From a virus (Duplodnaviria > Heunggongvirae > Uroviricota > Caudoviricetes): a stretch of 64,000 nt of DNA. Position 1 is the first letter of the stretch; each line of letters opens with the position of its first letter. Of the stretch, positions 5,660 through 46,813 are shown in pieces. The DNA lies in the IMG/VR virus record IMGVR_UViG_2724679293_000007, positions 34,885 to 98,884 of that record; one strand, 5' to 3'. The notes beneath the pieces were generated by a model. That model ran no database searches, had not been told where the DNA came from, and saw only the letters and a program-made list of their open reading frames with translations. Both the position numbers and the translations under genes were made by a program.

Positions 5660-6220
5660 ATGCTGATCGGCTATGTACGCGTATCAACAAATGAACAAAA
5701 CACTGCTTTGCAACGAAATGCCCTTGAAAGCGCAGGATGTGAGCTAATTTTTGAGGATAAGGCGAGCGGCAAAAAGACTGAACGCCCTGGGCTAAAAAAG
5801 GTTTTGCGTATGCTTTCCAGAGGTGACACCCTGGTCGTATGGAAGTTAGATCGTCTTGGGCGCAGCATGCGTCACTTGGTTGTGCTGGTGGAAGAGCTGC
5901 GTGACAGAGGAATTAATTTCCGGAGTCTCACTGACTCTATCGACACCAGTACACCAATGGGGCGCTTTTTCTTTCACGTAATGGGGGCGCTGGCAGAAAT
6001 GGAACGTGAGCTTATCGTTGAACGTACACGCGCTGGACTTGATGCAGCTCGCGCAGAAGGTCGTATAGGTGGGCGTCGGCCTAAATACCAAGAAGAAACA
6101 TGGCAGCAAATGCGGCGATTGCTCGAGAAGGGCATCCCCCGTAAGCAGGTTGCAATCATCTATGATGTGGCTGTTTCCACGCTTTATAAGAAGTTTCCGG
6201 CGTCATCATTTCAATCCTAA
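5660..6220 (+). CDS. cin: Cin-type serine DNA invertase (Hin/Gin/Pin/Cin family)
   Basis: 186 aa; N-terminal [13 protein letters not shown] with catalytic Ser, resolvase core, C-terminal HTH; immediately followed by a cix-like site and the inverted repeats. Confidence 0.95.
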
Positions 6221-6237
6221 ACCTTGGTTTAAGAGAA
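6212..6237. other. cixL-like crossover site (26 bp, imperfect dyad around central TT)
   Basis: caatcctaaacc-tt-ggtttaagagaa overlaps the cin stop; the right half matches the hix/gix/cix half-site family (TTCTCTTAAACC on the other strand). Confidence 0.7.
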
Positions 6238-6804
6238 CTTGGCACAAGCGGTGAAAAGATCCCCCTGTTGAGCACGGCTAACACATGGAGCGCACGCCAG
6301 ACTTTCAACGGTGGGATCACCGGGGCGCTGGCGGGGAACGCCGACACCGCGACGAAATTAAAAACAGCCAGAAACATTAATGGCGTCAGGTTCGATGGTT
6401 CGGCTGACATTAATATCAATACTCTGGTATCTCGCGGTCGCGTAACGGCCCTGGAGGCGAATGCACAGGGAACATCCGGGATTCAGCTGTATGAGGCATA
6501 CAACAATGGCTACCCTTCCCCCTATGGCAATGTGCTTCACCTTAAAGGTGCCACCGCTGCTGGCGAAGGTGAGTTATTCATTGGCTGGAGTGGCACGAGC
6601 GGTGCCCATGCGCCCGTACATATCCGTTCGCGGCGGGATACTGATTCTGCCAACTGGTCTGAATGGGCGCAGGTCTATACGTCAAAAGATTCAATTCCCG
6701 GCGTCAATGCCAAAGGGAATCAGGACACCTCTGGTAATGCGGCTACAGCGACCAAGTTGCAGACAGCATGTACTATCAATGGCGTCTCGTTTGATGGTTC
6801 TAAA
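6226..6804. repeat. left inverted repeat of the invertible segment (~579 bp)
   Basis: Reverse-complement near-identity with 11087..11665; the track ORFs 6461..6832(+) and 11074..11430(-) translate identically over ~116 aa. Confidence 0.85.
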
Positions 6805-7884
6805 GATATTGAACTTAACCCACGGTCTATAGGCACAATCAACTCCACAACAATGTCTTTTAGTGGTGGTGCAGGATGGTTCAAGCTGGCAACTGTAACC
6901 ATGCCGCAGGCAAGTTCTGTTGTTTCAATTACGTTGATTGGTGGCGCGGGATTTAACGTGGGGTCACCTCAACAGGCAGGTATATCTGAACTTGTTTTGC
7001 GTGCAGGTAACGGTAATCCGAAGGGGATTACTGGTGCTTTATGGCAGCGCACATCGGCAGGGTTTACAAATTTTGCGTGGGTCAATACTTCTGGTGACAC
7101 TTACGATATTTACGTTGCTATTGGAAATTATGCGACTGGTGTAAATATTCAATGGGATTATACCAGTAATGCCAGCGTAACGATTCATACTTCACCAGCA
7201 TATTCTGCTAATAAGCCGGAAGGATTAACGGACGGTTCTGTTTATTCGCTGTATATTTCGCCGCATGAACTTTATCCGGTTGGCGCACCGATCCCTTGGC
7301 CATCAGATACCGTTCCGTCTGGTTATGCCCTGATGCAGGGGCAGACTTTTGACAAATCTGCATACCCGAAACTTGCAGCCGCTTATCCGTCAGGTGCGAT
7401 CCCTGATATGCGTAGCTGGACGATTAAGGGCAAGCCCGCCAGTGGTCGTGCAGTATTGTCTCAGGAACAGGACGGCATTAAATCGCACACCCACAGCGCC
7501 AGTGCATCCAGTACGGATTTGGGGACGAAAACCACATCGTCGTTTGATTACGGTACTAAAACGACCAGTTCATTTGATTACGGCACAAAAACTACGAATA
7601 GCGCTGGAAATCATTCACACAATATACCTGTTGGTCACACTGGCGCGGGGAATGGTGTATCAGCCGGTTATAACGCTGCGTTAGGTACTGGTACCACGTC
7701 GAGCGCAGGAGGGCATGCTCACAATGTATATATCGGTGCCCATAACCACACTATCGGCATTGGTGCTCATGCCCATTCTGTCATTATTGGTCCCCACGGA
7801 CACACCATCACCGTTAACGCTACGGGTAACGAAGAAAACACCGTAAAAAACATCGCATTTAACTATATTGTGAGGCTTGCATAA
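6226..7884 (+). CDS. alternative tail-fibre C-terminal cassette Sv' (repeat-encoded common part plus variable end); not fused to the constant S part in this orientation
   Basis: ORF 6268..7884; its first ~179 aa are identical to an internal stretch of the 1003-aa fibre ORF; distal part is Gly/His-rich with short repeats; no upstream promoter or constant region in this orientation. Confidence 0.8.
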
Positions 7885-8462
7885 TGACATTCAGAATGAG
7901 TGAACAATCACGGACCATAAAAATTTATAATCTACTGGCTGGAACCAATGAGTTTATTGGTGAAGGTGATGCATACATTCCACCTCATACAGGTCTGCCT
8001 GCAAACAGTACCGATATTGCCCCGCCAGATATTCCGGCTGGCTTCGTGGCCGTTTTCAACAGTGATGAGGCATCGTGGAATCTCGTTGAAGACCATCGGG
8101 GAAAAACCGTCTATGACGTGGCTTCCGGCGACGCGTTATTTATTTCTGAACTTGGCCCATTACCGGAAAATGTCACCTGGTTATCCCCGGAAGGGGAGTT
8201 TCAGAAGTGGAACGGCACAGCCTGGGTGAAAGATGCAGAAGCAGAAAAACTGTTCCGGATCCGGAAGGCGGAAGAAACAAAAAACAGCCTGATGCAGATG
8301 GCCAGTGAGCATATTGCGCCACTTCAGGATGCCGTAGATTTGGATATTGCGACGGAGGAAGAGGCATCGTTACTGACTGCATGGAAGACATATCGGGTAT
8401 TGTTGAATCGTGTTGATACAGCAGTAGCAGCGGATGTTGAGTGGCCAGTCGCCCCGCAATAA
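7884..8462 (+). CDS. tail fibre assembly chaperone U'
   Basis: 192-aa ORF with ATG overlapping the Sv' stop; position and size typical of the U/U' chaperone. Confidence 0.8.
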
Positions 8463-8467
8463 AAAGA

Positions 8468-8497
8468 TAAAGCCATCGATAGAAATATTGATGGCTT
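8468..8497. terminator. bidirectional hairpin between the convergent U' and acyltransferase genes
   Basis: aaagccatc-N12-gatggcttt with a T-rich tract on either strand. Confidence 0.45.
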
Positions 8498-8505
8498 TAT
8501 GTACT

Positions 8506-9078
8506 CTATTTATACAATACAACACCGCTCTTTTTAGTAATATATGTGCAGTTCGATGGTATATCTTTATTTATAAAAGACATTGCACCTATTTTTACAT
8601 TATCCCCAATTTTACGTGATAATCCAATGATGCAACAATTAGCTCCGATATCAACGTTATTACCAATTTTTACTCTTGAACCAGGCATGTCACCATCTAT
8701 CTGTCCAATGGTAGTATTCTGCCGTAACACCAGATTTTCACCAGCATCAACAGCAAAATGAACAACAATTCCAGCATGATGGGGAATTGTTAACCCTTTT
8801 CCAATATTTGCGCCCAATCCAATTTCACAACCAAATTTGTTAATTATTTTACTGTTTAACTTTTTGGCTGCTTTCTTATGTAATTTATTACCATTAATAT
8901 GCATTTCATTAGCCAATCTCCACCAGAAAAGAAAATTCCGATTGCGCTGCCTCTTCTCTCTTAATAGTCGCCAAACATCCATTTTTTCACGCCTGATGAC
9001 TTCAGCCATCCAATAGCTCAATAGAGCTTTTGAATTCCCAAAGATGACAAAGTGAATAGCTATTAAGTAACATAACAT
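8506..9078 (-). CDS. hexapeptide-repeat (left-handed beta-helix) acyltransferase, serine/sugar O-acetyltransferase-like; start uncertain (M1, M24 or M33)
   Basis: Imperfect hexapeptide repeats ...IGLGANIGKGLTIPHHAGIVVHFAVDAGENLVL...IGNNVDIGANCCIIGL...IGDNVKIGAMSFI...; markedly AT-rich with a ~490 bp AT-rich leader. Confidence 0.8.
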   Translation of the reverse strand: MLCYLIAIHFVIFGNSKALLSYWMAEVIRREKMDVWRLLREKRQRNRNFLFWWRLANEMHINGNKLHKKAAKKLNSKIINKFGCEIGLGANIGKGLTIPHHAGIVVHFAVDAGENLVLRQNTTIGQIDGDMPGSRVKIGNNVDIGANCCIIGLSRKIGDNVKIGAMSFINKDIPSNCTYITKKSGVVLYK

Positions 9079-9566
9079 ATTGCAATTGCCTATATTTTTG
9101 GTTTCTATGGTTATATATCGACATTATAATTAAAACAATAAGCATCAGTGTGTTACTGCGTTCCTGCTAAACTAAACCAACGCACAATGTAAACACAAAT
9201 ATTAATTTTAAACTGAGCACTAAAGGGATGTCAATATTGTATTGATAATAAGTTGCAAGATTGCCACTACTTTCTATATTTTGGGATGCAATAATTTATA
9301 TTTTATCTATTCAGTGTTTCTTTGGGCTTATTAAGGATGTCATTATTAATTTATGGCTTGCCATTTCTATACATATCTATTAAAAATTTTGATTTGTCTA
9401 TTGAAAATAGATTTAATTGATTGGTTTAATTTTTACATGACGCTCTTTAATATAACTTCAGGTATATTAAAGCACATGCATTATATCCAGAGAAAATCAA
9501 CAAAATTGTTAGCCCTTATTTGTTGGGCTTATAGATATTAATTAAGGCCCGATCCCGGGCCTTTCC

Positions 9567-10100
9567 TCATTCCGGTTTTTCTGGAAACGTTACTGGCAGG
9601 ATGGAGGTATCTGTAGATTCGACTTTCTGCGCATATAGCATCCACTCGGTTAATTTCTGTTTATTCTCATCGGAAATGATGCCCAGCCGTAGCTGTGAGT
9701 CCCACAGTTGGGTTTTATCCCTGACAAGTTGCAACAGGCTTTGCTTTTCATTCTCTGCCTGCTGCCTCTGTTCTTCCTCGGTGTAAGTTCGCTTTATCAC
9801 TACGCCATCTTTGAACATCCATTTACCCGAAATATCAGCCCGGCGATTTGCTGTAATATCAGGTAATTCAACGACGCTTGCGCCTTCCGGATTAATTGCT
9901 GAAACATCCTTTTCAATACAAATAATAACGCCGTTACGGTCATAGACCATTTTCAATGTGTCTGGCTGGAAATTCTTTTGTTCCTCATACCAGTTTTTTC
10001 CATCATCTGAATAAAGCCATTTGATGTTAAATTGCTTTGTTAGCTGGTATTGCTCTTTTGTTTTAGGGTTGCCAGCAGTAATTTTTTTTAAGTGCATCAT
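9567..10100 (-). CDS. tail fibre assembly chaperone U
   Basis: 177-aa ORF starting 2 nt after the fibre gene stop. Confidence 0.85.
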   Translation of the reverse strand: MMHLKKITAGNPKTKEQYQLTKQFNIKWLYSDDGKNWYEEQKNFQPDTLKMVYDRNGVIICIEKDVSAINPEGASVVELPDITANRRADISGKWMFKDGVVIKRTYTEEEQRQQAENEKQSLLQLVRDKTQLWDSQLRLGIISDENKQKLTEWMLYAQKVESTDTSILPVTFPEKPE

Positions 10101-10102
10101 CG

Positions 10103-13027
10103 TTAAATACTCCCCGCGTTATACCACGTCCCATTAATGCAATACTGAATTGGCCTTGCCTGAGTTGTATCAATTAATTCATCACGGTTTCCGTTAACTG
10201 AACCCGTAACGACATAACCTGACCTGTCAGACCAGCCGGGACCATTCCATGTCTGAACAGATGACAGACCGCCCAGGCGAATACCTGTAATAAACCTTGA
10301 GTTACATTCTGCCTGCGTATATGCACCAACATCCCCCGCAGAGGGTTTGCGGGTTGTGGTATAAAACTCTGACCAGTTAGCTTCAAAGCCATAACCATCA
10401 CGCGCTGAACGATAAAAGATACCGCCGTTCTTATAATTCACGCGGAACTGTACAGCAGGGCAACTCCCCGCATTCATATTAAAGTGGAGGATTAATGTCG
10501 ATGCACCACTGGTATCTGCATCATAAACACCGCTATTCCAGTTCCAGCCAACAGCTTTATCATTTGCAACCCTGCTTCCTGTTTGCCCTAAAGCAAATGC
10601 AGGCTGCTGGTTTTTCGTATTGTAGTCTCTTCGCCAGCCAGGAGCATAAGCATCACCATGATTAATATAAGTGAATTGAGCGTTAGTGATTCCGCCGCCG
10701 CTGGACGTACTCGGAGTAGTAACGCGTATGGTCATTGCGCCGCGAGTGCCAATAACTTCCACCACAGCACCTGCAAGACAAATATTTCCGCAACCTGTAT
10801 CTGTAATGACCTTATTATTTGCATAAGCCCATGAGCCTTTGCACATCCAGTAAGGATGGTTAAATGCCCCCTGACTCTCCAGCCACGAAATAAATTGCGC
10901 AGTTGTCCAGACCTGACTATCGCCACCAATATCCACCCATGCGCTATATGCGCGGCAGGCACCAATATTTTTGGTGAAGGTATCTTTTCCCGGAATATCT
11001 GCGCCGTTCTGGTTTTTCTGTAATGCTCCTGCGGCTAATTCTACGGTTTGCTCAAGATTTAAATCTTCCGCCGTTAGCTCAATGTTTTTAGAACCATCAA
11101 ACGAGACGCCATTGATAGTACATGCTGTCTGCAACTTGGTCGCTGTAGCCGCATTACCAGAGGTGTCCTGATTCCCTTTGGCATTGACGCCGGGAATTGA
11201 ATCTTTTGACGTATAGACCTGCGCCCATTCAGACCAGTTGGCAGAATCAGTATCCCGCCGCGAACGGATATGTACGGGCGCATGGGCACCGCTCGTGCCA
11301 CTCCAGCCAATGAATAACTCACCTTCGCCAGCAGCGGTGGCACCTTTAAGGTGAAGCACATTGCCATAGGGGGAAGGGTAGCCATTGTTGTATGCCTCAT
11401 ACAGCTGAATCCCGGATGTTCCCTGTGCATTCGCCTCCAGGGCCGTTACGCGACCGCGAGATACCAGAGTATTGATATTAATGTCAGCCGAACCATCGAA
11501 CCTGACGCCATTAATGTTTCTGGCTGTTTTTAATTTCGTCGCGGTGTCGGCGTTCCCCGCCAGCGCCCCGGTGATCCCGCCGTTGAAAGTCTGGCGCGCA
11601 CTCCATGTGTTAGCCGTGCTCAACAGGGGGATCTTTTCACCGCTGGTACCGAGTTCTCTTAAACCAAGGTATTGGATAACGGCTAGTGTGCTTGTTTTAG
11701 CCAGAATATCGCGACCGACTGACGTTAAATCAGTCTGCGCTACCGTATCCTTACCGGTGAAATAAGGCAGTTTGTTTGCACCAGTCGCAAGGCCAGCGAG
11801 CGCGGTTAAAGTTGCATCCAGAGGCTGTTTGCCTGCCAGCGCATTTGTCATTGTTGTCGCAAAGTTCGGGTCATTGCCAAGTGCTGCGGCAAGCTCATTC
11901 AGGGTATCAAGAGCTTCTGGTGATGAACCAACCAATGCGGATATGGCAGCTCTTACATAAGCGGTCGTAGCAATCTGCGTATTATTTGTGCCCTGTGCGG
12001 CGGTCGGCGCAGTAGGGACACCCGTTAATGCAGGGCTTGCCAAAGGCGCTTTGAGAGCCAAGGCATTGTTGATAGTTGTGCTGAAATTCTGGTCGTTATT
12101 GATCGCAGCCGCTATTTCTTTCAGCGTATCCAGTGTGCCAGGCGCACCGTTGATAAGTGCAGTTATAGCTGCCTTAACAAAGGCTGTATTTGCGATCTGC
12201 GTGCTGTTTGTACCTTGCGCTGCCGTCGGCGCGGTTGGCGTTCCTGTCAGACTCGGGCTTTCTATTGGCGCTTTGGTATCAGCAAGATCTTTTACAGACT
12301 TAACGGCTTTAGGGGTCGCCGCCATTGTTTCGCTGTCGCTGTTAGTTTCGCTACTGAGCTGAACTAATCCCTTTTGCGTTGTGCTTGCATCCTGCGCCGT
12401 ATACTTGCTTTTTGCCAGATCGTAGGCTTTTTTAACCGCCAGCGAACTTGCAGCAACATCACTTCTGGTACTGGTTACAGAGTCTGAAATATCAATGCCG
12501 ATCGTGCGGTTAATACGCTCGGATGTATCAATCATCTCCTGGGTAATGGCAGATACGCCAGCAGGGATATTCACCGTACAAACAAGCAGTTCCCCATCTC
12601 CCAACTGATATGAATCGGTATAGGTTCTGGTAACAAATTCAGCCGCATGAATATGTGACGCTGTATTAACCTGATAGGTATCCCCTCCAAGGAGATATCT
12701 TCCCTTCAGCACAATTGCATATTTCTTACCTGCGCTAAGTGCAAGAGAAATATCCTTACGATGCTGAATAGTTACCTGGTAGAATTCACCAATATCAACT
12801 GACGCAGCGCCAGCAGTTTTATCACCATCCACTGAGGTGATTAACAGGTTCATCCCACCGCCAGGCTTAGGTAAGAAACCGGCATAAAATCCCGGGTCAA
12901 CAATCCCCCTGAATTTTCGGTTTAGCGCGGCTGACAGATATGGTTCGTGGTATTGCACATCAGCCACCAGAGCCAACGACTCGGGTGATGGGTAAGTAAC
13001 CGATGTAACAACTGTAACGTCATTCAT
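10103..13027 (-). CDS. tail fibre S (constant N-terminal part fused across cixR and the right repeat to the Sv variable end); start taken at the second in-frame ATG
   Basis: Track ORF 10103..13114; the ATG at 13027 has an AAGGA RBS and avoids a 76-nt overlap with the upstream gene; Ala/Thr-rich repeats typical of fibres. Confidence 0.9.
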   Translation of the reverse strand: MNDVTVVTSVTYPSPESLALVADVQYHEPYLSAALNRKFRGIVDPGFYAGFLPKPGGGMNLLITSVDGDKTAGAASVDIGEFYQVTIQHRKDISLALSAGKKYAIVLKGRYLLGGDTYQVNTASHIHAAEFVTRTYTDSYQLGDGELLVCTVNIPAGVSAITQEMIDTSERINRTIGIDISDSVTSTRSDVAASSLAVKKAYDLAKSKYTAQDASTTQKGLVQLSSETNSDSETMAATPKAVKSVKDLADTKAPIESPSLTGTPTAPTAAQGTNSTQIANTAFVKAAITALINGAPGTLDTLKEIAAAINNDQNFSTTINNALALKAPLASPALTGVPTAPTAAQGTNNTQIATTAYVRAAISALVGSSPEALDTLNELAAALGNDPNFATTMTNALAGKQPLDATLTALAGLATGANKLPYFTGKDTVAQTDLTSVGRDILAKTSTLAVIQYLGLRELGTSGEKIPLLSTANTWSARQTFNGGITGALAGNADTATKLKTARNINGVRFDGSADININTLVSRGRVTALEANAQGTSGIQLYEAYNNGYPSPYGNVLHLKGATAAGEGELFIGWSGTSGAHAPVHIRSRRDTDSANWSEWAQVYTSKDSIPGVNAKGNQDTSGNAATATKLQTACTINGVSFDGSKNIELTAEDLNLEQTVELAAGALQKNQNGADIPGKDTFTKNIGACRAYSAWVDIGGDSQVWTTAQFISWLESQGAFNHPYWMCKGSWAYANNKVITDTGCGNICLAGAVVEVIGTRGAMTIRVTTPSTSSGGGITNAQFTYINHGDAYAPGWRRDYNTKNQQPAFALGQTGSRVANDKAVGWNWNSGVYDADTSGASTLILHFNMNAGSCPAVQFRVNYKNGGIFYRSARDGYGFEANWSEFYTTTRKPSAGDVGAYTQAECNSRFITGIRLGGLSSVQTWNGPGWSDRSGYVVTGSVNGNRDELIDTTQARPIQYCINGTWYNAGSI
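11087..11665. repeat. right inverted repeat of the invertible segment
   Basis: Reverse complement of 6226..6804; identity ends at the ...GATGGTTCTAAA junction. Confidence 0.85.
11654..11679. other. cixR-like crossover site
   Basis: ttctcttaaacc-aa-ggtattggataa; the homology between the two repeat copies begins here. Confidence 0.7.
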
Positions 13028-13038
13028 CAAGCATATCC

Positions 13039-13473
13039 TTATGCTGTAGTCGTGTTTATGGCCATAACTGCGGTATATGTTTTGCCCACATACAGCGAGT
13101 CTTCCTGGACACAAATAATGGCGATTGGCTTGTTCTCGTTATCCAGTACAACCAGAGTGTTGAATGGGTAGTTTTTCCCTTCCTGCAACTGGCTTTGATC
13201 AAGGTCCATTCGGACAGTAATTATCCCACCTGAGTAGGTTGGCACGAGGTTGATGGTGCAAAATTGACTGGTTAGTTCTGCCAGATCGAAAGCCTTTGGC
13301 AGTTCTCCAATCTCATAAGTGCCATCTCCTTTCTTAGTAACCAGCGAACTGGTACCGAAAACGGCCTTGCTGATTAAAAATCGAGAGCCTTTGTTAATGG
13401 ACGATTCAGCGCGCCGCTGATAGTAATAGTCCAACAACTGACTCTTATAGAGGTTTGTTGAGACGTCAGACAT
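13039..13473 (-). CDS. tail-fibre-associated protein (R-like)
   Basis: 144-aa ORF immediately upstream of S; name by synteny. Confidence 0.6.
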   Translation of the reverse strand: MSDVSTNLYKSQLLDYYYQRRAESSINKGSRFLISKAVFGTSSLVTKKGDGTYEIGELPKAFDLAELTSQFCTINLVPTYSGGIITVRMDLDQSQLQEGKNYPFNTLVVLDNENKPIAIICVQEDSLYVGKTYTAVMAINTTTA

Positions 13474-24044: not shown

Positions 24045-24170
24045 TTTTTTTAGCTTCATATGCTACATTAACTTGCTTGCGTGCTAATGCATTTTCGGTT
24101 TATCCTAAACAGGCATCTTAGTAAAACGGATGCCGGGATTGGAACCCCGGATAATGCAAAAGGCGACACA

Positions 24171-24192
24171 GACGCCAAAAGCGTCTTTTTTT
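24171..24192 (+). terminator. rho-independent terminator/attenuator in the immI leader
   Basis: gacgccaaaagcgtc followed by TTTTTTT. Confidence 0.45.
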
Positions 24193-24199
24193 GTGTCAT

Positions 24200-24340
24200 G
24201 CCATCGCACAGCCATACGTAGCACATAGCTCCGAGATCAATGGTAGTGCTGGCTGGGCTGCCGAAAGGCAGGCCGGTTCCCTTTTGCGCCGGTAGTTCCA
24301 ACCCAGTCAGTGCTACCGCCATTGAGATTGGAACCTCACG
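24200..24340 (+). ncRNA. immI leader with c4-type antisense repressor RNA candidate
   Basis: Non-coding leader upstream of icd with mutually complementary segments (gtagtgctggctggg ... cccagtcagtgctac), as expected for the c4 RNA and its target sites; exact ends not determinable here. Confidence 0.35.
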
Positions 24341-27774: not shown

Positions 27775-27897
27775 TACAATCGTTGCGGGTGCTTGAGGCT
27801 ATCTGCTTCAGGCATGACCCGAAAAGCAGATAGAAGAAAGCCCCAGATAACATTACGCGTCCTGCAAGACGCTTAACATTAATCTGAGGCCATATCT

Positions 27898-28104
27898 ATG
27901 CTTAGCATACGTAGATTAGCCTCTTACCGACCAAAAGGTCAAGGAGAAGCAGGCTATGAAGCAGCAAAAAGCGATGTTAATCGCTCTGATCGTCATCTGT
28001 TTAACCGTCATTGTGACGGCACTGGTAACGAGGAAAGACCTCTGCGAGGTACGAATCCGAACCGGCCAGACGGAGGTCACTGTCTTCACAGCCTACGAAT
28101 CTGA
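27898..28104 (+). CDS. mok-like overlapping frame of the hok locus
   Basis: 68-aa ORF overlapping hok in another frame, as in hok/mok/sok loci. Confidence 0.4.
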   Translation: MLSIRRLASYRPKGQGEAGYEAAKSDVNRSDRHLFNRHCDGTGNEERPLRGTNPNRPDGGHCLHSLRI

Positions 28105-28111
28105 AAGGTAA
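27956..28111 (+). CDS. hok: Hok/Gef-family type I toxin (51 aa)
   Basis: Own translation MKQQKAMLIALIVICLTVIVTALVTRKDLCEVRIRTGQTEVTVFTAYESER matches the Hok/Gef signature (TM helix, LTRKxLCE(I/V)R, AYES); missed by the 60-aa track cutoff. Confidence 0.9.
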   Translation: MKQQKAMLIALIVICLTVIVTALVTRKDLCEVRIRTGQTEVTVFTAYESER

Positions 28112-33368: not shown

Positions 33369-35096
33369 TTACTCAGAGTCACCGGCATCAATCGTGTCGC
33401 CGCTTATGAAGTTAAGCCCGCCTTTTTTGGCCATTGTCAGCGTTACACGAGTGAAGTAATCAGCGCCGTTGCGTGGGTGCATATCGTTGATAGCCGAACC
33501 CCACAGTGTGGTACGGTTGACCAGCGCCGGAGTGGTCGGATGCTGGAACGGGATAGCCGGGACAGCATCACCAGTCACGAAGCCTGCTTTACCCGGATTT
33601 TCATCACGGACGTAGCACAGCACATCCATCGAGCTGAACTGAATGTTCTCTGTCGTTAAGTTCTTACAAATACCAGCAGGTACTTCGTACACTTTCACGT
33701 TACCGAACAGGGTACCGATGTAGTGAACATACGGAGTCTGGATATAGTCTTCGGCTGGCTGGAAGAAATCCTTCGGCAACTGTTTGAAGAAAGATGCTGC
33801 ATCAGCACCAGCAAACATCCCCATCGCACCAGAAGATTTAACGCGCTCAATAATGTCGCGATATACAGTCTGGAATTTGCCACGAATGATGGTTGCCCAT
33901 ACATCAAAGGACTGGTTAACCGGCAGAGCGATGTCAAAGGTGTCGGTCGCAAGAGTACGCCAGATCATGATGCGAAGACGCAGCATATCCTGTTCATGAG
34001 ACAGGTATTCCTTCAGGGTGCGGAACTGTAGGGAACCCAGGTCCAGACCAAATTCACGCTGTGCTTCATACGCCGCCTGTACCGTGTGCTCAGCCGCGAT
34101 AACGAACTGGCTTGGGAACAGGGTGTATTTCTTCATTTCGTGGTTGATCAGCGGGATCAGCTCAGGAGCGGCTTCAATATTGATTTCCGTCTCAATTGCG
34201 ATCTCAGTGCCTTTATCCGGCGCTTTGGAGAACGACAGGGCAATCTGACCAATGTTGTAGTTCAGAGAGCAGGTAACAGTGATTTGCTCACCAGCAGCAT
34301 TAGTAAACGAGTGAAGTAGGCTGCCGGAACCGTTATCAACAACAGACTTAATACGGTTAACGTAGATGTTAGTGCGACCTTTTCGGATTGGTACATTCTG
34401 GCCTTCGAAGTCTTCCATCTTGAAGGTTGCGGTTTTGCTGGTGCCATCGGAGCTTGCCACCAGCACATAGCGGCGGCGTAACTGGCTGTACACACCGACG
34501 GATTGCATGTCCAGAACATCACCAGCAGCATAAGAACCAAAAGAGGAACCTGCCACGTTAAAGACTTCATAGATGTCGGACTGGTCACGCGTAACCGGAA
34601 TGAAGGTACACGCATCAGCGGTAGCTGCCCCCAACTGAACAGGCAGGATCATCGCGAGGAATAAAGGCAGACGCATAACACCGTCAGAAACGCTCATCAT
34701 CTCTGCTGCGACGGATTCCAGCATCGCTTTATTAGTGGCATCCATGCTATTGCGGGTGGACTCAATCAGGCAGTTTTCCAGCGTCTGGTGGCAGGAGGCC
34801 AGAATTTCCGGACGCGGCATAGATTTATGTGCTGCGGCGTAGTCAGCCAGTGCACTTGCCCACGCGGTAGCAATTTGAGCGGTGGCATTATCAGAGATAC
34901 CCGCAAAAATTGGGTCTTTACGTGCAGCTTCAAGGATAGATGCGGCACGCGCGGCATCATCTTTGATGAATTGGTTATCAGTACCGAACTGTGCTGTACT
35001 TGCCCAGCCAAGAACGGCTTTAGAGCGTTTTGCGATATCTGCAATACGATTCTGGTATTCGCGTAAGTTACTCAAGTTACTCTTCCTTAAACACAA
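33369..35096 (-). CDS. major head protein (P1 gene 23 position); start codon uncertain (TTG in track)
   Basis: 575-aa ORF adjacent to parS as in P1; followed by a hairpin. Confidence 0.55.
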   Translation of the reverse strand: MCLRKSNLSNLREYQNRIADIAKRSKAVLGWASTAQFGTDNQFIKDDAARAASILEAARKDPIFAGISDNATAQIATAWASALADYAAAHKSMPRPEILASCHQTLENCLIESTRNSMDATNKAMLESVAAEMMSVSDGVMRLPLFLAMILPVQLGAATADACTFIPVTRDQSDIYEVFNVAGSSFGSYAAGDVLDMQSVGVYSQLRRRYVLVASSDGTSKTATFKMEDFEGQNVPIRKGRTNIYVNRIKSVVDNGSGSLLHSFTNAAGEQITVTCSLNYNIGQIALSFSKAPDKGTEIAIETEINIEAAPELIPLINHEMKKYTLFPSQFVIAAEHTVQAAYEAQREFGLDLGSLQFRTLKEYLSHEQDMLRLRIMIWRTLATDTFDIALPVNQSFDVWATIIRGKFQTVYRDIIERVKSSGAMGMFAGADAASFFKQLPKDFFQPAEDYIQTPYVHYIGTLFGNVKVYEVPAGICKNLTTENIQFSSMDVLCYVRDENPGKAGFVTGDAVPAIPFQHPTTPALVNRTTLWGSAINDMHPRNGADYFTRVTLTMAKKGGLNFISGDTIDAGDSE

Positions 35097-46737: not shown

Positions 46738-46813
46738 GGCCCTTTAGCTCAGTGGTTAGAGCTGGCGACTCATAATCGCACGGTCACCGGTTCAAGTCCG
46801 GTAGGGGCCACCA
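46738..46813 (+). tRNA. tRNA with anticodon CAU, ileX-like (tRNA-Ile2; Met not excluded)
   Basis: Cloverleaf folded by hand: acceptor GGCCCTT/AGGGGCC, D-arm GCTC-AGTGGTTA-GAGC, anticodon loop CTCATAA, T-arm ACCGG-TTCAAGT-CCGGT, encoded CCA; near-identical to E. coli ileX as recalled. Confidence 0.9.

Follow-up and report, generated by a model that had tools for sequence, protein, structure and literature searches.

The Cin/cix C-segment of phage P1 has been textbook material since the 1980s. Hin/hix (Salmonella flagellin), the Pin/e14 P-segment and Min/p15B likewise combine a serine invertase with 26-bp sites and carry the Fis enhancer inside the gene for the invertase. The G-segment of phages Mu and D108 (Gin/gix) follows the same logic, with an invertase, a constant fibre part (Sc) outside the segment and the alternative modules Sv-U and Sv'-U' inside it. 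Mu has inverted repeats of only 34 bp, and its gin lies on the opposite side. Here a 64,000-nucleotide (nt) stretch of a Caudoviricetes virus (IMG/VR record IMGVR_UViG_2724679293_000007, positions 34,885 to 98,884) was analysed; this whole stretch is called the window. An earlier note, made from the sequence without database searches, had proposed that the window carries a complete Cin/cix inversion switch with inverted repeats, and this was confirmed almost base for base. We take the locus, with a probability of about 90%, to be the C-segment host-range switch of a P1-like phage-plasmid, of the Cin/cix type.

All the features that define a Hin-family invertase switch or the P1 C-segment and can be tested on a sequence were found, and the departure concerns the cargo only. 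The element is a member of this switch family with a variant cargo, in which the pairing of fibre tips is unusual, the switch itself being unchanged, and judged from its sequence the switch is apparently complete and in working order. The system is already known, and the same cargo variant is present in more than 12 GenBank records (JL22 and others). As a discovery it matters little. The variant has been partly described, without annotation of the cix sites and with an interpretation as gene replacement.

Parts of the switch

The locus has the same order as the P1 C-segment (NC_005856 32225-36480), that is lydC, cin, cixL, the segment, cixR, Sc, R and the late promoter LPs. Cin, the cix sites, the enhancer, LPs and the Sv'-U' module are shared with P1. 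The invertase, its sites and the repeat arms were located as follows (aa, amino acids).

5660..6220, + strand: cin, serine DNA invertase of 186 aa, open reading frame intact
5678..5749, no strand assigned: recombinational enhancer (Fis-dependent in P1), in the 5' part of cin, by homology to P1
6212..6237, + strand: cixL, 20-bp core 6215-6234, crossover 6224/6225, after the P1 annotation
11654..11679, - strand: cixR, 20-bp core 11657-11676, crossover 11666/11667, after the P1 annotation
6214..6815, + strand: left repeat arm, coding for fibre residues common to both forms and containing two tail-fibre repeat motifs
11076..11677, - strand: right repeat arm, from the repeat search and a base-by-base comparison of the arms

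Cin matched the Pfam families Resolvase (PF00239, E-value (E) 3.7e-51) and HTH_7 (PF02796, E 1.9e-18), and its catalytic-serine motif YVRVST is intact. The protein is identical to P1 Cin at 185 of 186 residues (the change is A40T) and shows two differences from P7 Cin. The enhancer, which had been placed in the 5' part of the invertase gene, is present there by sequence homology only: it agrees with the annotated P1 enhancer (NC_005856 31678-31749) at 69 of 72 positions, and its three changes are silent third-codon positions in the central part.

The cin stop codon (6218-6220) falls inside cixL, in line with the earlier note, and the second, inverted site was found where that note had put it, at about 11654-11679. 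The cores are TCCTAAACCTTGGTTTAAGA at 6215-6234 (+ strand) for cixL and TCCAATACCTTGGTTTAAGA at 11657-11676 (- strand) for cixR. Both sites are identical to those annotated in P1 and P7, both have a CC-TT-GG centre, and they stand in inverted relative orientation; the crossover points were placed by homology to the P1 record. A search of the 64-kb window with up to three mismatches allowed returned these two matches, compared with 0.02 expected, and no extra or quasi-cix site. In p15B, by contrast, six crossover sites give a shufflon-like arrangement. A multiple-inversion system of the p15B kind was ruled out because the window, searched with up to three mismatches, holds only two cix sites.

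The inverted repeat has arms of 602 nt that are 98% complementary and separated by 4260 nt. The repeat of about 579 bp described earlier corresponds to the portion of this arm inside the 26-bp sites (6238-6815). The arms are 95-96.5% identical to the repeats of about 0.6 kb in P1. The two copies had been called near-identical apart from a mismatch cluster beside the cix sites, and the base-by-base comparison agreed with this. Two mismatches are in the outer cix half-site (6218 and 6220), and six form a cluster (6240, 6243, 6246, 6291, 6294 and 6312); perfect identity then extends over 492 bp (6313-6804), followed by three mismatches at the inner edge (6805, 6807 and 6813), beyond which similarity stops. 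Because the two possible fibre proteins are identical up to residue 647, the six mismatches of the cluster are synonymous. An assembly artefact as the source of the repeat was ruled out by the same architecture in P1, P7 and many independent assemblies.

Each arm also has an internal 68-nt direct repeat (71% identical, 399-nt spacing), at 6334-6401 and 6733-6800 in the left arm and mirrored in the right arm at 11091-11158 and 11490-11557. It codes for two copies of the phage tail-fibre motif ...TKL..AR.INGV.FDGS.DI.

The fibre gene S, which gave a Pfam Phage_fiber_2 match, its operon and the two variable ends (named V1 and V2 here) are arranged around and within the segment as follows.

11667..13027, - strand: Sc, the constant N-terminal part of S, outside the invertible segment, aligning with P1 S from residue 1
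13039..13473, - strand: gene R, fibre structure or assembly, first gene of the operon, collinear with R of P1 and P7
13504..13522, - strand: late promoter LPs, driving R-S-U, an exact 19-nt match to the LPs annotated in P1
10103..11075, - strand: V2, the expressed variable end, of the P1 Sv'/Mu S' type by its match in the Protein Data Bank (PDB) and its identity to P1
9567..10100, - strand: chaperone of the expressed fibre, homologue of P1 U' and Mu U', by Pfam Caudo_TAP and identity
6816..7884, + strand: V1, the silent fibre end, with a collar domain and a T4 gp37-like needle tip, by Pfam Collar and PDB 2xgf
7884..8462, + strand: Tfa-type assembly chaperone for V1, in the position of U' in P1 (Pfam Caudo_TAP, E 3.5e-42; phrog_105, E 3.7e-97)

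S starts with the ATG at 13027 and reads through cixR with no stop up to 10103, giving 974 aa; the constant part is therefore joined through the right repeat to the variable end that finishes at 10103, as had been proposed. When the segment was inverted in silico, so that 13027-11667 was joined to 6225-7884, an open protein of 1006 aa without a stop was obtained. The general layout claimed earlier, with the constant fibre part outside the segment and two alternative ends with their chaperones inside, was thus seen in the sequence. The alternative end had also been called promoterless, and indeed no promoter-like site was found on the plus strand upstream of V1, which is consistent with its expression after inversion only. 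Between the crossover points the invertible unit measures 5442 bp, compared with 4256 bp in P1 and 4007 bp in P7.

In the mechanism that we propose, Cin would bind the two inverted 26-bp cix sites, aided by the enhancer within cin, and would exchange strands at the central TT dinucleotide (6224/6225 and 11666/11667), upon which the 5442-bp segment would flip. Since LPs and Sc lie outside the segment, each orientation would fuse Sc, via the shared 0.6-kb stretch, to one of two unrelated ends, and would set the matching chaperone gene downstream of that end. The assembled state would yield a P1 S'/Mu S'-type fibre with a U'-type chaperone, and the inverted state a fibre with a T4 gp37/lambdoid Stf-type tip together with the Tfa chaperone. 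This swap of fibre tips would change the host range. Cin catalysis, Fis dependence and the receptor specificities are taken here, by inference, from the biochemistry of P1, Mu and Hin. Whereas Hin flips a promoter, it is coding ends that would flip in this element.

Inversion among close relatives

The same segment was found in other P1-like plasmids at 98-99.9% identity and in both orientations. JL22 (ON018986), p15648-1, pC21-4, pPEC209_3 and CP041922 share the 5464-bp segment, acetyltransferase gene included, at 98.2-99.5% identity and with the same flanks; JL22, pC21-4 and CP041922 carry it in the orientation opposite to that of the window, and none of these records has annotated cix sites. 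For JL22 and CP041922, the 5464-bp segment aligned on one strand (98.5-98.7%) and both flanks on the other, with breakpoints at exactly 6214 and 11677. In PLSDB, the orientation of the window occurred in 4 records and the opposite one in at least 5. Among complete E. coli genomes, searched for full-length junctions, the cin-repeat-V1 junction was present in 5 records and the synthetic Sc-repeat-V1 junction in 8-9. Finally, pPEC209_3 and pC21-4, each of 93,854 bp, have collinear flanks (99.6-99.8%), and their segments are 99.9% identical and inverted. Inversion of the segment at the cix sites was found for a family of near-identical elements.

One further cin-repeat-V1 junction (99.1%) was located in NZ_LR134247.1 (E. 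coli NCTC9040) at 2149675-2151176. The record is labelled as a 4.98-Mb chromosome, which suggests either that a P1-like element has integrated or that a plasmid was joined to the chromosome during assembly.

P7 (AF503408) is collinear with the window, and in the same orientation, over the region upstream of cin and over chaperone-Sv-Sc-R (93.7-98.6%). It differs in a chaperone split into Ua and Ub, in the lack of the acetyltransferase, in its shorter segment (4007 bp) and in its cin-proximal end, and over the repeat the identity of its left arm is no more than 80%.

Both orientations being found in nature, the one recorded in the window may be arbitrary, either because the assembler chose across the 602-bp repeat or because it reflects the majority state of a mixed population. 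It is known that the C-segment comes to be present in both orientations in lysogens of P1. This accumulation has also been summarised in print (bioRxiv 10.1101/2022.07.24.501295). The repeats exceed the short-read length, and database records are split roughly 5 to 8 between the orientations. Nothing in the sequence speaks against an arbitrary orientation, and we hold it to be a serious possibility, at a little below even odds. It concerns the recorded state only and not the existence or the mechanism of the switch; if it holds, a statement that the element is "currently in state X" tells little about the element.

The occurrence of both orientations in close relatives also bears on whether the switch is still in use. 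Truncated cin genes or rearranged C-segments have been reported in some P1-like plasmids (PMC6906374), and a frozen relic could be imagined here as well, with parts intact in appearance, inversion ceased and the silent end decaying. However, Cin is one residue away from P1 Cin, and conservation extends to the cix sites and the enhancer. Both the silent end and its chaperone have full-length open frames, and the differences between the repeat arms are all synonymous. Together with the relatives, these observations make a relic the least credible of the alternatives weighed here, and a switch in working order is preferred.

Next to Cin, the repeats themselves could serve as a route of inversion. 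RecA-dependent flipping between them had been suggested, and in its strong form this explanation holds that homologous recombination between the 0.6-kb repeats does most of the flipping, with Cin dispensable or secondary. The 492 bp of perfect identity (6313-6804) far exceed the minimal length for RecA-mediated exchange in E. coli. The two routes can be told apart by the linkage of markers within the arms, which were tabulated from a MAFFT alignment that left out P7 and compared across loci L001, L003, L004, L012 and L013 (in the window, 6240-6312 versus 11651-11579). In pPEC209_3 and pC21-4, the arms differ at 15 positions between 6240 and 6710 (window numbering), 14 of which fall in 6240-6432. 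All 15 arm-internal markers, including 6240, 6243 and 6246 at 16-22 bp from the crossover, were linked to the variable ends, while the outer half-site markers 6218 and 6220 remained with the cin and Sc flanks. Since arm markers travel with the variable ends and outer ones with the flanks, the exchange is placed between 6220 and 6240. This interval of 19 bp is centred on the cix core, as expected of Cin-mediated recombination, whereas a crossover in the repeat would part outer markers from the variable ends. The linkage indicates that the mapped inversion was of the Cin type, site-specific, and not a RecA crossover in the repeats. The sequence parts, both open fusions, both natural orientations and this exchange at the cix core are shown by the sequences.

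Homologous interaction between the arms has nevertheless left a footprint. The marker patterns of the arms differ within the JL22 group, the number of arm-internal differences varying by lineage from 0 in p15648-1 and 1 in JL22 to 6 in the window and 15 in pPEC209_3, and the V1 arm of JL22 is a mosaic. Such lineage-variable homogenisation, together with the mosaic, indicates gene conversion between the arms. These footprints are non-reciprocal and thus differ from crossovers. Moreover, Cin and its enhancer, like the two cix sites, are conserved at the level of P1, which implies selection for the site-specific route. RecA as the main agent of flipping is therefore very improbable. Of the earlier suggestion, what stands is a plausible minor route, given the 492 bp and the conversion footprints, while the one natural inversion that could be mapped fell at the cix core. 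For the bulk of the flipping, site-specific inversion by Cin is the preferred explanation.

The region has been interpreted as gene replacement in the JL22 paper (PMC9603915). Annotation pipelines wrongly treat the silent end as a "phage tail protein" in its own right and leave the cix sites unannotated, so that comparative studies can read differences in orientation between plasmids as gene replacement. Comparison of marker linkage offers a cheap way, requiring only sequence, to tell site-specific from homologous inversion in database records.

The two fibre ends

When the two ends were compared with known receptor-binding domains, V2 matched PDB 8ju3 ("Tail fiber protein S'", Mu S'; E 2.5e-210) and V1 matched PDB 2xgf, the receptor-binding needle of T4 gp37, with its last 210 or so residues (E 9.4e-77). 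The expressed fibre is, over its full length, 94.6% identical to P1 S' (Sc+Sv'), and the chaperone on the expressed side shows 93.2% aa identity to P1 U' versus 58% to P1 U. At the DNA level, 9540-11677 is 90.8% identical to P1 Sv'-U', the match being to the other strand of the P1 reference, and the expressed end with its chaperone is 93-95% identical in nucleotides to S'-U' of Mu and D108; the Sc part of Mu differs from the Sc found here. Sv'-U' joined to Sc corresponds to the C(-) arrangement of P1. By this homology, the assembled state is C(-)/S' in P1 nomenclature and not Sv. The earlier name, "S-Sv state", can stand as a positional label, and the P7 record does name the same module "Sv"; by homology, on the other hand, the module belongs to the P1 S'/U' (Mu G(-)) type.

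S'-type fibres of P1 require O-antigen, and P1 with the S' fibre transduces Shigella flexneri 2a and 5a and E. coli O3 (bioRxiv 10.1101/2022.07.24.501295). By analogy, the same receptor specificity may extend to the expressed fibre of this element.

P1's own Sv-U module (of the Mu S/U type) is absent from the segment. Thus the cargo pair of P1, Sv-U plus Sv'-U', was not found here; only the Sv'-U' homologue is present, and Sv-U is replaced by the gp37/Stf-type tip, Tfa and an acetyltransferase cassette. No similarity between V1 and V2 was detectable (best E 0.83), and the two chaperones are alike only over their final 66 residues (27% identity). The block of tip and tfa is about 90% identical in nucleotides to lambdoid stf/tfaQ loci, which occurred in 4701 of 5426 complete E. 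coli genomes. The stf/tfa sequences of e14 and Qin are related to the silent end (PMC12529663). The silent end had been described as accompanied by U'. A chaperone is indeed there, but it is a Tfa, and the end that it follows is of the gp37/lambdoid Stf type and does not come from the P1 set.

Because the fibre repertoire differs from that of P1, the variant is relevant when predicting which hosts can be transduced by P1-like phage-plasmids that carry resistance. The repertoire here would be either the S' type (O-antigen dependent in P1) or the gp37/Stf type, and the K-12-type S fibre is absent.

Two further observations touch the silent end. The Rfam family IS009 (RF02111) gave a full-length match at 8227-8425 (+ strand) with 192.7 bits, compared with a gathering score of 117. 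The match lies wholly within the 3' part of the tfa chaperone gene. It is probable that the family was drawn up from tfa remnants of prophages and that the match does not point to an RNA gene of its own.

The second concerns relatives of the element. In both pPEC209_3 (L012 1-787) and pC21-4 (L013 1-785), an ompC porin gene is present on the plasmid, some 8 kb upstream of cin and on the far side of the dar operon; the equivalent position precedes the start of the window. Tips of the gp37/Stf type use OmpC in T4 and lambda. The plasmid-borne ompC is intriguing since the silent tip is of this type.

The acetyltransferase cassette and other features

Between the two convergent chaperone genes lies a cassette of about 1.07 kb (8500-9566) with a low guanine-plus-cytosine (GC) content, 35-36% over the acetyltransferase gene and 26-28% in its upstream leader. 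It had been missed by the earlier note. Its features are listed below.

8506..9078, - strand: hexapeptide-repeat acetyltransferase of 190 aa (phrog_2154, E 5e-85; NCBIfam matches below cut-off)
9205..9234, - strand: sigma-70-like promoter, TTGACA, 18-nt spacer, TAAAAT, by consensus match
8467..8500, no strand assigned: hairpin with a perfect 15-bp stem between the convergent tfa and acetyltransferase genes, by inverted-repeat search and folding energy

Judged from its sequence, the protein is a left-handed beta-helix acetyltransferase, and the RefSeq name "serine acetyltransferase" carried by its relatives is unproven; phrog_2154 is a phage family without an assigned function. In NCBIfam it scored 61 bits against a cut-off of 210.65 for CysE (TIGR01172), 73 against 150 for EpsC (NF041874), and 56-57 against about 195 for WcaB. 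A true serine acetyltransferase of cysteine biosynthesis was ruled out because the equivalog scores are far below cut-off and the homologues stand beside prophage tail-fibre genes.

No site in the region is better than the candidate promoter, which agrees with the consensus at 11 of 12 positions. The hairpin has a folding energy of -20.5 kcal/mol on the + strand (z -6.4) and -17.2 kcal/mol on the - strand, where it is followed by UCUUUUUAUU, a U-run on the strand of the acetyltransferase gene. It is probably a bidirectional terminator. Acetyltransferase homologues are widespread in Enterobacterales and are located at prophage edges or beside tail-fibre genes. The same tip-tfa-acetyltransferase block was found in a P2-like chromosomal prophage, at 94% nucleotide identity and in the same convergent arrangement, and no invertase was seen in the 12 kb examined near it. 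The acetyltransferase was noted in the JL22 paper, where its presence was called unexplained (PMC9603915). It is most likely a moron that arrived with the Stf/Tfa module and would be expressed in either orientation. A self-contained moron is favoured because the gene has its own candidate promoter and probable terminator and because the same block exists in the P2-like prophage with no invertase seen.

Another role for this gene would tie it to the switch. In the assembled orientation it lies downstream of the late S'-U' transcript and is co-directional with it; after inversion, it would face convergent transcription from Sc-V1-tfa. The gene could then be a conversion gene for a surface polysaccharide (O-antigen, lipopolysaccharide or capsule) whose expression is modulated by the orientation of the segment. 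If this were true, it would couple the surface modification of the lysogen to the fibre type of its progeny, a coupling that would be relevant because S'-type fibres of P1 require O-antigen (bioRxiv 10.1101/2022.07.24.501295). We consider this role improbable, and the self-contained moron is preferred.

Several points weigh against the interpretation of the locus given here. Its activity in this element rests on sequence integrity and on relatives, and Cin catalysis and Fis binding are presumed from other systems. The marker linkage comes from one near-isogenic pair, with a third record showing the same linkage. The receptor specificities are extrapolated, the fibre being 94.6% identical and not identical to P1 S', and the tip of V1 resembles T4 gp37 over only about 210 residues. 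The acetyltransferase promoter is known only as a match to a consensus.

Elsewhere in the window, Rfam matches to isrK (24113-24191, + strand) and C4 antisense RNA (24236-24323, + strand) correspond to the immI immunity region of P1. A sok antitoxin RNA match (27787-27961, + strand, 113.9 bits) adjoins an open reading frame for a 51-aa Hok-like protein (27956-28111, + strand), MKQQKAMLIALIVICLTVIVTALVTRKDLCEVRIRTGQTEVTVFTAYESER; together these would be a hok/sok addiction module on a phage-plasmid. The sole tRNA gene of the window is at 46738-46813 (+ strand); it has the anticodon CAU and was called Met by ARAGORN, but could equally be of the lysidine-modified Ile2 type.

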